A DNA stretch of 37,740 nucleotides from a virus (taxonomy: Duplodnaviria; Heunggongvirae; Uroviricota; Caudoviricetes). Positions 11,784 to 25,747 of this stretch are shown here, in pieces. The DNA is taken from IMG/VR virus record IMGVR_UViG_2603880148_000004, one strand, 5' to 3'. Within the stretch, counting starts at the first letter, position 1. Each line of letters starts with the position of its first letter. The notes beneath the pieces were generated by a model, which ran no database searches, was not told where the DNA came from, and was given only the letters and a program-made list of their open reading frames with translations. Position numbers and translations under genes: made by a program.

Positions 11784-12878
11784 ATGAGCAGACCGGACTG
11801 GGGGGCGTTGCAGCAGGAGTATATTGCTGAATACACCCGCTCCGGTATATCTCCGGTGGCATGGTGTGAAGCAAGGGGACTGAATTACGCAACAGCCCGT
11901 CGTTACATCAAAAAAACTCCGAAAAATGCGCAGACAGAAATGTGCAAAACTGCGCAAAAAAGTGCGCAGAAAAAATCTGCGCAGACTGCACAAAAGCGGA
12001 ACGAAAAATCTCAGGAAAAAAAGCCAGTATTCGATGCGGGCCTGAATGAGGGCGACGCGGAGGAATTTTCGTTCTGTCCCGATGAATTCGGCATTTCTGA
12101 CCAGCAGGCTAAGTTTGCGATGCTTGTTGCTCAGGGTAAAAAGCCGACAGAGGCGTACCGACTAGCCGGTTATGAGGGGCAAGGTGCGACAGCTAACAGC
12201 AACGCCAGTCGTATGCTTAGAAATGCCAGGGTTTTTCGCGCTATCAGCTACTTCCGCAATCAGTACCAGAAACGCTATACCGCAGACCTGGATTTACTAG
12301 TGAGTCAGTTGATGGCTATTGTCCTGGCCGACCCCAATCAGCTTGCACAATTTCGCCGTGTTAACTGCCGTTATTGCTGGGGCGAGAATCATCTCTACCA
12401 GTGGCGCGATATAGCAGAATTCGACAAGGCAGCGGCGCAGGCTTCCAGAGATGGCAAACCCGAACCGGAATATGGAGGCCTCGGCTTTGTTGATAACGCC
12501 ATACCCAATCCGGACTGCCCGAAGTGCTGCGGTGAGGGAACGGGACAGCTTTATATGGCTGATACCACTCTGCTTGATGGGGATGCGCGGCAATTATATG
12601 CAGGGGCAAAATTCGGAAAATTCGGCGTTGAGATCCTGCTGGAGGATAAGGCTGCCGCCCGGCGTGAATTGTTGCGTTTGTTTTCTGCTGGCGGGGCTTT
12701 ATGTGCAGATAAACGGCTACAGGAACTGGAAATTGAACGGCGCAGAATGGAAAACCAGAAGCTGCGCAAAGAGATCGAAACGGTGGAAGATAATGAACAT
12801 CCCCAGCCTGTGGCGATCAATATTAATGTGGTTGATGCCAGAGTAAGGAGTGATGAAGATGATCTCTCCGACGCTTAA
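11784..12878 (+). CDS. Terminase small subunit (N-terminal HTH, C-terminal Cys-rich region), 364 aa
   Basis: Immediately upstream of the large terminase; N-terminal HTH-like segment; central segment AKFAMLVAQGKKPTEAYRLAGYEG typical of small terminase subunits; Cys motifs CRYCW / CPKCCGEG. Confidence 0.65.
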   Translation: MSRPDWGALQQEYIAEYTRSGISPVAWCEARGLNYATARRYIKKTPKNAQTEMCKTAQKSAQKKSAQTAQKRNEKSQEKKPVFDAGLNEGDAEEFSFCPDEFGISDQQAKFAMLVAQGKKPTEAYRLAGYEGQGATANSNASRMLRNARVFRAISYFRNQYQKRYTADLDLLVSQLMAIVLADPNQLAQFRRVNCRYCWGENHLYQWRDIAEFDKAAAQASRDGKPEPEYGGLGFVDNAIPNPDCPKCCGEGTGQLYMADTTLLDGDARQLYAGAKFGKFGVEILLEDKAAARRELLRLFSAGGALCADKRLQELEIERRRMENQKLRKEIETVEDNEHPQPVAININVVDARVRSDEDDLSDA

Positions 12879-20569: not shown

Positions 20570-21532
20570 GTGAGTTCAGGTGCAAAGGTTATCTCGGCAT
20601 TTATCCGGGAGACAGTTGCAGGCACTACGCCAGCAAGTGGTGACTGGAGTTTATTAAAACGCACAAGCTGGGGAGTAAAACCCACCCAGAATAAAGGCGA
20701 AAATAATGAGATTGGTGGCTCCCGGATGGCTCAGGGGGCGACGCCTGGCACTGTGGATGTCGGCGGTGATGTTGGTACCAAATTTCGCTGGGGTCAACAT
20801 GATGATTTTCTTGCATCCTGTTTCGGCGCGGAATGGTCAGGCGATTCTCTGACAATGGGGAATGAGCGAATAACATTTTCTCTGGCGACCTATGCGTCCG
20901 ATGTCGGAATTGCTTCTGTCGTCAGAGGAGCGCAGGTTGGCTCATGGAAAATGCAGATCCCTAACGACGGCGATATTACAGCGACCGTAACCTTTGCCGG
21001 GCTGGGCTGGGAATCAAAGGCCGATGATACGAATTTTATCAAAGGCGAACCTGTGGATAGTGCAGGAAAGTTACGCTATTCGTTTAAGGCGGTTTCAGCA
21101 GTAAGCCTGAATGGTGTTGCCGGAGGTAACGGTTTTTGTATCGACAGTTTTGATATTCAGTTCGATAACAAACTCCAGACACAGCGTTGTATCGGGACTG
21201 GCTCGCCTTATGCAGGAGCAAATATTCCGACTACTTTTACACCGTCCGGTACGGTGACGCTTTCATGGTCTAAAGCCGCGTGGGAAATCTGGAGTAAAAC
21301 ACTGACTGGAGAAACAGTTCCGTTCAGCTTCACGCTTTCGAATGGAGAGGGGGCATACACTTTCAGTTTCCCGAAGGTTCAGGTGTCAGGTGAATGGCCT
21401 GATGGGGGTAATACTGACATTATCCAGGTTCAATTGAGCATTACCGCAGCAGATGAAGCACCTACGATAACCAGAAAAAAATGCTCCCCGACTGCCGTGA
21501 TCGCAAAAGCCAGTGCTGATGCGATTAGTTGA
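20570..21532 (+). CDS. Major tail (tube) protein, 320 aa
   Basis: GTG start with RBS ggagg; position before chaperone G/GT and tape measure; Ser/Thr/Gly-rich. Confidence 0.65.
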   Translation: MSSGAKVISAFIRETVAGTTPASGDWSLLKRTSWGVKPTQNKGENNEIGGSRMAQGATPGTVDVGGDVGTKFRWGQHDDFLASCFGAEWSGDSLTMGNERITFSLATYASDVGIASVVRGAQVGSWKMQIPNDGDITATVTFAGLGWESKADDTNFIKGEPVDSAGKLRYSFKAVSAVSLNGVAGGNGFCIDSFDIQFDNKLQTQRCIGTGSPYAGANIPTTFTPSGTVTLSWSKAAWEIWSKTLTGETVPFSFTLSNGEGAYTFSFPKVQVSGEWPDGGNTDIIQVQLSITAADEAPTITRKKCSPTAVIAKASADAIS

Positions 21533-21580: not shown

Positions 21581-22042
21581 ATGAGGTTATGGATGTTTAT
21601 TCTTAATCAGAAAATTATCATCGGTGGAGAACGCTGGTTTACGCCAATGAAGGACTTAAAACCTGTAGACGGGTTAAAACTGTTGGTGGCAAGCAGCGAT
21701 AACGATCAGTATCGCTCCCGTAATGCATTAATCCGTCGTCACATTGAGAAAATGGATGCCAGTTTGCACGTCGGAACGAAGGAGTTTGATATTTCAAAGG
21801 TTTCCGAGGTAGATTCTGTTGATGATTTACTCATTGATAATGCTGCTCGTTATCTGCTGAAAGACTGGAAAGGGGTTGGTGAACTGGTTAATGGTGCTGA
21901 GGTTGCACTGGAATATACGCCAGAACGAGGGATCGCGCTGCTTAAGCAGAATCCAGAGTTGTACTGGCAGATCCTTGCAGAAGCAGCCAGCATCGCCCAG
22001 GGTAAAGAGCAGCAGAAGCAGGATACGATAAAAAAGCCATAG
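21581..22042 (+). CDS. Tail assembly chaperone (lambda G-like), up to 153 aa; start uncertain (21581 or 21647)
   Basis: Position between major tail and tape measure; acidic; ends 2 codons after a slippery heptamer. Confidence 0.6.
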   Translation: MRLWMFILNQKIIIGGERWFTPMKDLKPVDGLKLLVASSDNDQYRSRNALIRRHIEKMDASLHVGTKEFDISKVSEVDSVDDLLIDNAARYLLKDWKGVGELVNGAEVALEYTPERGIALLKQNPELYWQILAEAASIAQGKEQQKQDTIKKP

Positions 22043-22350
22043 CCGCCCAGCGGTGGTTATCGGAGTTCGGGGGAGAAAGGGGGGAAAAGGCAAGATGGAA
22101 GCGAGAAAAACTCAGGTTGCCACCGATACCGGAACCAGAAATAGCCCCGGTGCTTAAGGAATTGTTGTACGCCTATTCGGTAATATCCCGTGCCCGACGT
22201 TATGCTGGAATGACCGGGGTGCCTTTGCCTTTATCTCTGACAGAGATAAATGAATATTTAGCCACTCATCCGGTATTGATTGAGCGCGATGAGTTTGAAG
22301 CAGTGATCTTTGCACTGGATGACCAGTATTTTCAGGAGCAGTGTGTGTAG
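21581..22350 (+). CDS. Tail assembly chaperone GT-like fusion produced by a programmed -1 frameshift at A-AAA-AAG (22030-22036)
   Basis: The -1 frame is open from 22006 to 22350 and overlaps the end of the G-like ORF; classical X-XXY-YYZ heptamer lies 2 codons before the G stop. Confidence 0.5.
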
Positions 22351-22470
22351 TTGTTAATTACGTACACTCTGTTACAGAGATGTGATGGTGTCTTTAATTA
22401 AATCGATGATGCTCCTGGAGAAAAGCATTGCGTGGCCTCGTAATCGCTATATCTACTATTATGTCGCCTG

Positions 22471-22496
22471 AAACCCACTTCGGTGGGCTTTTTGTT
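22471..22496 (+). terminator. Intrinsic terminator-like hairpin between the chaperone genes and tape measure
   Basis: cccac-ttcg-gtggg hairpin followed by ctttttg. Confidence 0.4.
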
Positions 22497-22513
22497 GTCT
22501 GGAGTTTTAATAA

Positions 22514-25500
22514 ATGGCAGAGCAAACCTCGCGTCTCGCAATAATTATTGATAGCACTGGAGCAAAAAATAATGCTGACAATCTGACCTCCTCATTAGTC
22601 AAAATGACGCAGGCCGGGGAAACTGCTGCAAATAGCGCAGGGAAAGTGACTAAGGCAACAGAAGATGAGAAGAACGCGCTCGCAAAATTAAAAGCAGCTA
22701 TTGATCCAGTTGGTGCCGCAATTGATACTGTCGGTCGACGCTATTCTGAATTAAAGAAATTTTTCGATAAAGGGCTTATTGATAAAGAAGAATATGAATT
22801 TCTTGTCCGTAAACTTAATGAAACCACAGAGGAATTGAGCGGGGTTGCGCAAGCGCAGAGAGAAGTCGAGAAGGCCGGAAAACTTGCTGCCGCCCAGCAG
22901 GAAGCGCAGGCTCAGGCCTTTCAAAGAATGCTGGACAAGATCGACCCTCTGGCTGCGGCGCTAAGAAATCTTGAACAACAGCATGATGAACTTAATGCTG
23001 CGTTTGCATCCGGGAAAATAAATGGTTCTCAGTTTGAGAATTATAGCCGAAAAATACAGGAAACACGGCGAGAGCTTACCGGAGAGGCTCAGGCAGAGCG
23101 AGAAGCAGCAAAAGCGCATGATGAACAGGTTGTTGCTTTGCAACGTCTGATTGCTCAACTTGATCCTGTCGGAACTGCTTTTAATCGTCTGGTAGAACAA
23201 CAGAAACAGCTCAATGAAGCAAAAGCCAAGGGGATGCTTTCTCCTGAAATGTATGAGGAGCTTTCTGGAAAACTTCGTGCTATGCGGAGTGAGCTTGAGG
23301 TTACTCAATCACAATTAAGCAAAACCGGAATGTCGGCAAAACAAACGGCTTTTGCTATGCGCATGTTGCCTGCACAAATGACGGATATTGTTGTTGGGTT
23401 GTCCACTGGTCAGTCGCCATTTATGGTGTTAATGCAGCAGGGCGGCCAGCTAAAAGATATGTTCGGTGGGATTGGCCCGGCGATCAAAGGTGTAGGTTCT
23501 TATGTGCTGGGATTAATTAATCCTTTTACCCTGGCCGCAGCAGCCGTTGGGGTCTTAGGACTGGCTTACTATAAAGGCTCTCAGGAGCAGGACGAATTTA
23601 ATAAATCTCTTATTCTTACCGGAAATTAGTTGGGGACAACCAGCGGGCAATTGGGCGATATAGCTCAACGTGCCGGGAATGCGGCTGATTCGACAACTGG
23701 TGCTGCGGCGGCAGTATTAAATCAGCTTGTGCGTTCGGGAAAGGTAGCGAGCAGTTCGCTGGAGCAAGTGACGACAGCGATAGTAAAAACGAGCGAAGTA
23801 ACAGGAATATCAACCGAACAACTGGTTAATGACTTCAATGAAATTGCAAAGGATCCTGTCAGTGCCATATCAAAACTTAATGATCAGTACCATTTTCTGA
23901 CACTTGCGACTTATAACCAGATTAAGGCGCTACAGGATGAAGGGAACCAGCAGGAGGCCGCCCGCATTGCGACAGAAGAATACTCATCCTCAATGATCCA
24001 GCGCACCAACCAGATTAAAGAAAATCTTGGTTATCTTGAGACTGCATGGAAAGCTGTCGCAGACTCCGCAAAATGGGCATGGGATTCCATGCTGGATATT
24101 GGCCGTGAGACCTCCCTTGATCAAAAAATCTCAGATGTTCTCCGTCAAATTGATGAAATAGAAAAAAATACCCGACCCGGAGTTTTCGGGTTAGGTGGCA
24201 TTGGAGATGGCGGAGCTCAAAATAAAAGGCTGGCACGATTAAAGCAGCAATTGGGCGTACTTCAAGCAGAAAAAATTGCTCAGGACGTACTAAATTCATC
24301 AATAAACGATTACAACAAGCGACAACAGGAAGGAATTGAACTCAGACAGAGAGCAGATGCCTTTTCAAAACAATATCAGACCCGGGAGCAGCAGAGAGCT
24401 AGTGAACTTGCAAAACTGGAAAAGCTAAAGAATCAGTATTCAAAGGAAGAATATAATAATCTTATCGCTCAAATAAATGAGCGTTATAAAGATCCAAAGC
24501 AACCAAAGGCGAAAGGTTATTCTGATGATGCAGCCCAACGAATGATTGATCATCTGAATCAACAGAATGCGTTACTAAGTTCACAAGCTGAGTTGACCGT
24601 TAAATTAAGTTCCTCTGAACAGGAACTGGTTAAGTGGCGTCAGCGGATTGCCGACCTAGAGTCACGACCATCATCGAAATTAACCCAGGATCAGAAATCG
24701 CTTCTCTTACACCGGGAAGAAATAACCGCGTTGATGGAGAAAAATGTTACGATTGAAAAGAATAACAGGCTAATCAAGGAATCCGCCGAAATAACAGCAT
24801 GGCGTGATTCATTGCAGGCTTCGATTGATAATCGTCAGCAGGGGTATGATATTCAGATTGCTGGTTATGGGGTTGGCGATAAAAATCAGCAACGCCAGCA
24901 GGAATTACTGCGGATTGAACATGGATATAACAATCAGCGTCTGCAACTTGAACGTGACTATGCAGATAAATCCCGTGGAATGTCAGATCATGTTTTTCAA
25001 GAGAAAATGCAGGCTCTGAATGATGCTCTGGAACGGGAAAAAGAAATTGTCAGACAGAAAAACGAGCAGCTCGATATTCAGGCAGGAGACTGGGTTAGTG
25101 ATGCCTCCCAGGGATTCAATAACTGGCTGGATGACACTAAGGATATCAGTGAGCAGATAAAATCAACCACGACTCAGATGTTTGATGGGATGACCGATGC
25201 GCTGGGTGATTTTGTCACGACAGGCAAGGCAAATTTTCGTTCTTTCGCTACTTCCGTGATTTCGGATCTTAGTCGAATAGCATTAAAGGCTTCAATTACT
25301 GGGATTTTCGACAGCATTAGTAACAGTTCTTCTGGGGGGATTTTAGGAACTATCGGGAGTGCTATTAGTAAATTTATTCCGAATGCAAAGGGCGGTGTTT
25401 ATGAGTCTCCGTCATTGAGCACGTATTCGAACGGTATTTATGATTCCCCGCAATTTTTTGCTTTTGCAAAAGGGGCTGGTGTTTTTGGTGAGGCTGGACC

Positions 25501-25747
25501 GGAAGCCATTATGCCATTAACACGAACTTCCGATGGTTCTCTTGGTGTCAGAGCTATTAATAGTAAAAGTGGTAATGGAGGCGGAGATATTACCTATGCC
25601 CCTGTATACCAAATCACTATTCAAAATGACGGCCAGAATGGAGAGATTGGCCCTCAGGCAATAAAAGCACTTATGGGGATGGTTGATCAGCGGGTGCAGG
25701 GCAATCTGTTAAATATGCGACGTGATGGGGGAATGTTAAGTGGCTAA
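22514..25747 (+). pseudogene. Tail tape measure protein gene interrupted by an in-frame TAG at 23627-23629 (371-aa and 705-aa segments in one frame)
   Basis: Both ORFs share a reading frame and are separated only by TAG; the second begins at TTG straight after the stop; coiled-coil-rich N-terminal part and Gly-rich C-terminal part; combined length about 1077 aa. Confidence 0.75.

Follow-up and report, generated by a model that had tools for sequence, protein, structure and literature searches.

Organization of the locus

The window, by which we mean the whole 37,740-nucleotide stretch of viral DNA that was analysed (IMG/VR record IMGVR_UViG_2603880148_000004), represents the late region of a siphovirus-type prophage. 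Within it the tube gene (20570-21532) is followed by the G/T region (21581-22350) and the tape measure gene (22514-25747), and then by homologues of lambda M, L and K. An earlier note on this DNA had placed in the G/T region a programmed -1 ribosomal frameshift site of a GT-type tail chaperone. The features of the locus, with the evidence on which each call rests, are as follows.

20570-21532, + strand: major tail (tube) protein gene; an ORF annotated as 'phage tail tube protein' in RefSeq and as 'BIG2 domain-containing protein' in phage records
21581-22042, + strand: predicted G-like tail assembly chaperone gene (YdaY family); ORF list, translation, PHROG 313 and synteny
22030-22036, + strand: slippery heptamer A_AAA_AAG, codons ATA AAA AAG; sequence and conservation
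22036-22350, + strand: predicted T-like extension in the -1 frame, 104 codons, stop TAG 22348-22350; translation, profiles and conservation
21581 or 21593-22036 joined with 22036-22350, + strand: predicted GT coding sequence, joined at the slip
22037-22063, + strand: candidate stimulatory hairpin with an 11-bp stem and the loop CAGC; minimum free energy, E. coli clade
22514-25747, + strand: tape measure gene, composed of the same-frame ORFs 22514-23629 and 23630-25747; so annotated in related records

The DNA of the window is 98-99.9 % identical to that of E. coli phage isolates of the vB_EcoS-xxxR series, and prophage matches are found in 1075 of 5426 complete E. coli genomes (about 1 in 5), including the K-12 reference. 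RefSeq and GenBank name the G gene YdaY; the name comes from b1366, a truncated gene of the K-12 Rac prophage that is itself annotated as 'putative uncharacterized protein YdaY'. The K-12 MG1655 copy of ydaY (locus L095 of our set; NC_000913.3 1425621-1426290) has lost the N-terminus and keeps both AAAAAAG and the complete 104-codon T frame. A search of the literature on ydaY with frameshifting or the Rac prophage yielded no functional description of the gene, and no paper there treats YdaY as a chaperone. Every E. coli and Klebsiella record that we inspected, K-12 included, lacks an annotation of ribosomal slippage, and the extension is either unannotated in these records or entered as a short 'hypothetical protein'. 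In a collection of 5.8 billion proteins the T ORFs are unnamed, lack a Pfam domain and are inconsistent in length (60-138 aa), such erratic lengths being what is expected of an ORF without a real start.

The tape measure gene of the window is split by an in-frame amber codon at 23627-23629, where TAG replaces the CAG of phage vB_EcoS-683R6. In a host without amber suppression this copy of the prophage may therefore fail to make tails.

Between the stop codon of T and the start of the tape measure gene lies a spacer of 163 nt (22351-22513), which is 96-100 % identical in 48 related loci and thus more conserved than the coding sequence on either side. This spacer contains a tiny ORF at approximately 22385-22471 (MVSLIKSMMLLEKSIAWPRNRYIYYYVA), the ATG of which is lost in some relatives, and at 22474-22497 a terminator-like hairpin with a T run, an unexpected place for such an element, between the chaperone and tape measure genes. 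The spacer has no match in Rfam, and Rfam and tRNA scans over the whole window were likewise empty. Between T and the tape measure gene, the relatives from Klebsiella, Pseudomonas and Acinetobacter have from one to four additional small genes (hypothetical, membrane protein or DUF4760), at L002 2340-3325, L005 2226-3560 and L007 1774-2940. These additional genes occupy the place of the window's conserved spacer, so that this junction seems to be a preferred place for the insertion of accessory genes.

The proposed slip site and the overlapping reading frames

The bases at 22030-22036 are AAAAAAG and lie in the phase X_XXY_YYZ in the zero frame of the ORF 21581/21593-22042, the 3' end of which reads CAG GAT ACG ATA AAA AAG CCA TAG. 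The stop codon at 22040-22042 is thus situated 3 nt past the heptamer with one codon (CCA) between them, and the coordinates given previously for the heptamer and the stop are borne out in the sequence. In the -1 frame a TAA at 22003-22005 is followed by an open frame from 22006 to the TAG at 22348-22350, so that the G and T frames overlap by 34 nt with the heptamer inside, and A_AAA_AAG is the sole Z_ZZN or heptamer motif in this overlap. A -1 slip here adds 104 residues (AIAAQRWLSEFGG...QEQCV), taking G from 149 or 153 aa to a GT of 252 or 256 aa depending on the start codon, which is either ATG 21581 (153 aa) or ATG 21593 (149 aa, with the better Shine-Dalgarno sequence, GAGG). The earlier note had described the -1 frame as open from 22006 to 22350 with an extension of about 105 residues, which agrees with the 104 that we count, and there is no -1 stop between 22036 and 22117. 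It was also correct that the extension is reported as a separate ORF, as the program's ORF list gives it solely as a TTG-initiated 77-codon ORF at 22117-22350.

By itself the occurrence of the heptamer is within chance, since nine copies of AAAAAAG are found on both strands of the window against 10.4 expected. E. coli genes show a strong avoidance of A_AAA_AAG in the X_XXY_YYZ phase (z = -10.1; PMC4066793, Table S3). Taken together, the phase of the heptamer, its location in a 34-nt overlap within the gene lying between the tube and tape measure genes, and its invariance in the 84 loci described below are beyond chance.

A second in-phase A_AAA_AAG is present at 12017-12023 in the ORF 11784-12878, again in a AAAAAAGCCA context. 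A -1 slip there would stop after eight codons and give a truncated product of about 88 aa, and this copy of the heptamer may be incidental.

Conservation of the proposed slip site, and transcriptional slippage as an unlikely alternative

For comparison we used 94 related loci, which together with the window make 95, taken from GenBank phages, from genome contigs (one genome per species; at least 7 loci) and from IMG/VR viral contigs, the scan of the latter contributing the bulk of the set. Motifs were read at the codon homologous to Lys148, a residue that does not vary in the protein alignment. At this codon A_AAG is present in 95 of 95 loci and a canonical heptamer in 90 of 95, with individual counts of 84 for AAAAAAG, 6 for GGGAAAG, 4 for GGAAAAG and 1 for GCAAAG followed by TAA. 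All 84 of the enterobacterial loci (40 distinct 220-nt sequences from E. coli, a Salmonella phage, Klebsiella, Citrobacter and relatives) have A_AAA_AAG without variation. The lambda heptamer, G_GGA_AAG, is found in the six loci from Mixta and Acinetobacter, and G_GAA_AAG in four Pseudomonas loci belonging to two subclades (phages phiPSA1 and Aurca01 together with two Pseudomonas genomes), in which the zero frame runs 20-25 codons further. Erwinia phage Gungnir39 has GCA AAG TAA, a bare A_AAG tetramer beside the stop codon. The loci with non-canonical slip sites are L003 (1986-1995), L004 (434-440), L005, L010 and L011.

The T frame is -1 relative to G in 94 of the 95 loci, the exception (L015, 1985-2012) having two separate 1-nt deletions 3' of the slip site. 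Depending on lineage the zero-frame stop occurs 0, 1, 7, 20, 24, 25 or 35 codons past the slip, and whatever its position the -1 peptide, with the pattern A-I-A/E-A-Q-R/K-W after the slip-site K, begins at the slip in every lineage. The versions of this post-slip peptide seen in different lineages are AIAAQRWLSEFGG, AIEAQKWLKEFAG, VIEAQEWLNEFGG and AIARFQWESEW, and the slip site, the -1 frame and the post-slip peptide are all conserved from E. coli to Pseudomonas and Acinetobacter. The earlier note had held that a lack of conservation of the heptamer and downstream frame in orthologous phages would speak against a programmed site; with the counts given above, both are conserved.

A contiguous fusion is seen in one protein from Providencia stuartii (P0026), in which TIKK is joined directly to VIEAQKWL (...ETIKK followed by VIEAQKWLTEFGG), and this is the junction predicted for the slip. 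In P0001 a deletion fuses the frames 5' of the heptamer, and P0002 also has a homopolymer indel in this region. These fused or shifted copies (L015, P0001, P0002 and P0026) may be either sequencing errors or real mutations.

Slippage of RNA polymerase on the A6 run, with one A inserted in some of the mRNAs, would give the same GT protein. The site is indeed a homopolymeric A run, but six A residues are short for efficient slippage by the E. coli RNA polymerase, for which about 8-9 or more are normally required. Moreover, what all members of the family share is the ribosomal A_AAG motif, of which the invariant terminal G matters for re-pairing of tRNA-Lys and not for slippage of the polymerase. 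Although transcriptional slippage is an established route to like products in some bacteria and IS elements (PMC5009743), it is not the family-wide mechanism here, because the G_GGA_AAG and GCA_AAG sites have no homopolymer. We consider it very unlikely as the source of GT; as a minor contributor on the A6 run it may play some part.

The coding signature changes frame at the heptamer

Variability was counted by codon position in the 40 distinct enterobacterial sequences. Over the 120 nt preceding the heptamer 36 of the 40 columns at zero-frame position 3 are variable, as compared with 14 and 10 at positions 1 and 2, while in the 93 nt downstream it is the -1-frame position 3 that varies (28 of 31 columns, with 11 and 10 at positions 1 and 2). 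As the wobble variability follows the zero frame upstream and the -1 frame downstream, the periodicity switches frame at the heptamer. All seven columns of the heptamer itself are invariant, and these include three zero-frame wobble positions. Immediately 5' of the Lys pair the codon is either ATA or GTA, such that the third base A is held though the amino acid changes, and the ATA at the slip site is the only ATA among the 12 Ile codons of the window's G gene.

These observations bear on whether T might be a separate gene, initiated at TTG 22117 or TTG 22165 or by termination-reinitiation, with the heptamer being incidental. Such a gene is what the ORF lister reports and what several public records call as a 'hypothetical protein' at this position. 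However, the annotated starts disagree among records, and the -1 frame contains no ATG, GTG or TTG from 22006 to 22117, notwithstanding that the 27 codons between the slip site and TTG 22117 are conserved as protein from E. coli to Pseudomonas. An AGG directly abuts TTG 22117, leaving no usable Shine-Dalgarno spacing, and third-position variability follows the -1 frame from the heptamer on. Reinitiation at the G stop is excluded by the loci in which the zero-frame stop lies 7-35 codons downstream, as the -1 peptide starts at the heptamer in these too. We therefore regard a separate T gene as very unlikely.

That a contiguous gene has been broken by a 1-nt indel, or that the A run contains a sequencing error, with the heptamer there by chance, is scarcely credible: the amber codon in the window's tape measure gene and the homopolymer indels seen here in some assemblies (L015, P0001, P0002) would be in keeping with decay or error, but the -1 arrangement recurs throughout the independent loci save the one noted, in at least seven genera and in isolated phages, the G-only stop is kept everywhere, and the exceptions are singletons, each with a different lesion.

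Family assignment and predicted structure

The G protein matches PHROG 313, 'tail assembly chaperone', with E = 8e-47 over profile positions 13-149 of 258, and the T extension matches positions 173-246 of the same profile (E = 7e-3) as well as phrog_1189 (E = 1e-35). As PHROG 313 has 258 positions and G is only about 150 aa, this profile contains fused G-T proteins of the predicted length. The Pfam family Phage_TAC_18 (PF23812) matches the extension at 20.2 bits (E = 7e-4, positions 12-78 of 79), below its 27-bit gathering threshold, which suggests a distant relationship between the two sequences. Pfam and NCBIfam provide no assignment for G, and no Pfam or NCBIfam match to the lambda G or T families was obtained at E <= 1.

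Tail assembly chaperones reportedly share a conserved 'spiral' fold, a description credited to Pell et al. in 2013. In an AlphaFold model of GT built with a 26-sequence alignment the T domain is predicted confidently (pLDDT 84-92) and a helix formed by residues 121-159 spans the junction; the G part has pLDDT values of 34-60, which are too low to check for the spiral. The best BFVD matches of the GT model are full-length tape-measure or tail-assembly chaperones of 230-270 aa, from Caulobacter phage CcrColossus (E = 2e-6), Acinetobacter phage Loki (5e-5), Escherichia phage Seurat and Salmonella phage 9NA; their scores range from E = 2e-6 to 1e-2, yet the TM-scores are just 0.3-0.4. Profile searches of the PDB sequences and a Foldseek search of the PDB gave no match.

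The search for stimulatory elements

In the window a hairpin at 22037-22063 has a predicted free energy of -14.2 kcal/mol (z = -3.6), with 1 of 200 shuffled sequences being equally stable. It begins without a spacer after the heptamer, which is closer than for typical stimulators, and it is absent from the Klebsiella, Citrobacter and Erwinia copies, so that it was rejected as a feature of the family. We propose it as a putative stimulator in the E. coli clade only. A conserved stimulatory RNA structure was not found, the consensus fold of 22 diverse sequences having about -2 kcal/mol and no meaningful covariation. In the Pseudomonas copies, GC-rich hairpins of -17 to -20 kcal/mol come after the G_GAA_AAG, although these are no stabler than those of shuffled sequence. 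We also considered the AGGA located 6 nt upstream of the heptamer as a Shine-Dalgarno-like stimulator and rejected it, since conserved Gln-Asp/Glu codons account for it and the Erwinia phage lacks it.

In an E. coli reporter the efficiencies reported for A_AAA_AAG are 0.29, 4.3 and 39 % with no, a weak and a strong stimulator respectively, and those for G_GGA_AAG are 0.28, 3.8 and 43 % (PMC4066793, Table S3). These near-equal values fit the interchange of the two heptamers within the YdaY-type family.

Comparison with known frameshift systems

Tail assembly chaperones of the G/GT type, with a -1 programmed frameshift, are said to have been defined as a functional class by Xu et al. in 2004, a class in which G and GT are made at a fixed low ratio, are both needed for tail assembly and are both missing from virions. 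Frameshifting of the G/GT type is a conserved trait of long-tailed dsDNA phages, with experimental proof for lambda, P2, L5, TM4, phiC31, HK022 and HK97 (PMC5313236; PMC5009743). In lambda the coat on the tape measure consists of G and GT, and recruitment of the tube protein falls to T (PMC5009743). The locus described here resembles lambda gpG/gpGT (Levin et al. 1993; Xu et al. 2004, 2013, 2014; reviewed in PMC5009743) in the placement of the gene pair, with the major tail gene on one side and the tape measure gene on the other, in that the predicted -1 slip is near the 3' end of G at an X_XXY_YYZ heptamer ending in A_AAG, and in that the extension is of about 100 residues; moreover, remote members of the YdaY family use lambda's own G_GGA_AAG. 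It differs in having A_AAA_AAG as the heptamer and a zero-frame stop one codon later, and there is no detectable sequence similarity to lambda G or T. The comparison with lambda G/GT made in the earlier note therefore stands for the architecture and the predicted function and does not extend to sequence, the likeness being one of architecture and mechanism only.

A closer relative by descent is the homologue in Acinetobacter phage vB_AbaS_TRS1 (TRS1_18/TRS1_19), which has been deposited as a joined CDS, and the frameshift is thus already annotated in this remote branch of the YdaY-type family. It is a true homologue within the same aligned family, with a T part that is 39 % identical, the same -1 architecture and the slip at the homologous Lys codon. 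Unlike the window it uses G_GGA_AAG, its zero frame continues for approximately 26 codons past the slip, and its G part is too diverged for detection by tblastn.

Among E. coli prophages, ECs1801 of prophage Sp9 in O157:H7 Sakai belongs to the cluster A_AAA_AAG_25, for which frameshifting was considered 'safely inferred' (Sharma et al. 2014, PMC4066793). The ECs1801 chaperone gene likewise carries A_AAA_AAG in its last codons (AGA AAA AAG TAG) and has the same synteny, but its 124-aa protein gives no BLASTP alignment to the YdaY-type G and is part of a different tail module. The cluster was accordingly rejected as a representative of the YdaY family, being an unrelated chaperone of prophage Sp9, and the YdaY family is absent from the clusters listed in that study (PMC4066793).

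The heptamer of the window is identical to that of E. coli dnaX (tau/gamma), where A_AAA_AAG is also decoded by tRNA-Lys. Frameshifting in dnaX reaches about 50 % under the influence of two stimulators, a Shine-Dalgarno-like element upstream and a strong hairpin downstream. The shift shortens the dnaX product, whereas the YdaY-type shift would lengthen the product, and in the YdaY-type family we found no conserved stimulator.

A model for synthesis of G and GT

Because of the position, phase and conservation of the heptamer, together with the match of both halves to PHROG 313, the proposal of a programmed -1 site in a GT-type tail chaperone is supported. We propose that GT is made by -1 frameshifting at 22030-22036, and estimate the probability of this reading from the sequence evidence at about 0.9. 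The same evidence supports the gene at 21581/21593-22042 as encoding the predicted G of a Rac-type siphovirus prophage (YdaY family). In this model, most ribosomes would terminate at TAG 22040 to give G (149 or 153 aa), and a minority, with tRNA-Lys on A_AAA_AAG, would slip back by one base. The slip would be of the classical tandem -1 type, in which the tRNA on AAA in the P site and the tRNA-Lys on AAG in the A site shift to pair anew with AAA AAA. The slipped ribosomes would then read the -1 frame to 22350, giving a GT of 252 or 256 aa with a 104-residue T domain.

If lambda gpG/gpGT is taken as a guide, the tape measure protein would be coated by G and by the corresponding part of GT, the T domain would recruit the tail tube protein, and a low and fixed GT:G ratio would be set by the efficiency of frameshifting. 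We infer both the occurrence of the slip and the role of G and GT in assembly; on the same analogy the efficiency is probably a few per cent, as in lambda.

A more speculative idea, and one that we hold to be rather doubtful, is that the YdaY-type chaperones represent a natural allelic series in which -1 frameshifting takes place at a single, fixed codon. The members of such a series may comprise the tandem-slip sites A_AAA_AAG and G_GGA_AAG, the near-cognate P-site variant G_GAA_AAG, and the bare A_AAG with UAA of Gungnir39. If all of these variants are functional, a single tRNA-Lys slip together with a pause, imposed by a stop codon or a hairpin, could replace tandem slippage with the GT:G ratio being kept. 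In this picture the highly conserved 163-nt spacer and its terminator could provide a further level of control over stoichiometry.

Implications for the YdaY family

Taken as a whole, the sequence data support a real but ordinary case of the known G/GT frameshift, of which the new aspect is that it is unannotated in the E. coli Rac-type (YdaY) prophage family. The main value is therefore in annotation: YdaY, including b1366 of K-12, can be renamed tail assembly chaperone G, the downstream 'hypothetical protein' is to be read as its predicted T extension made by frameshifting, and the records should gain a joined CDS for GT. The slip-site variants provide a small comparative series that is usable for testing the sequence requirements of -1 frameshifting. 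The picture of phage tail assembly and of recoding is unchanged, with one more sequence family coming under the conserved G/GT rule.
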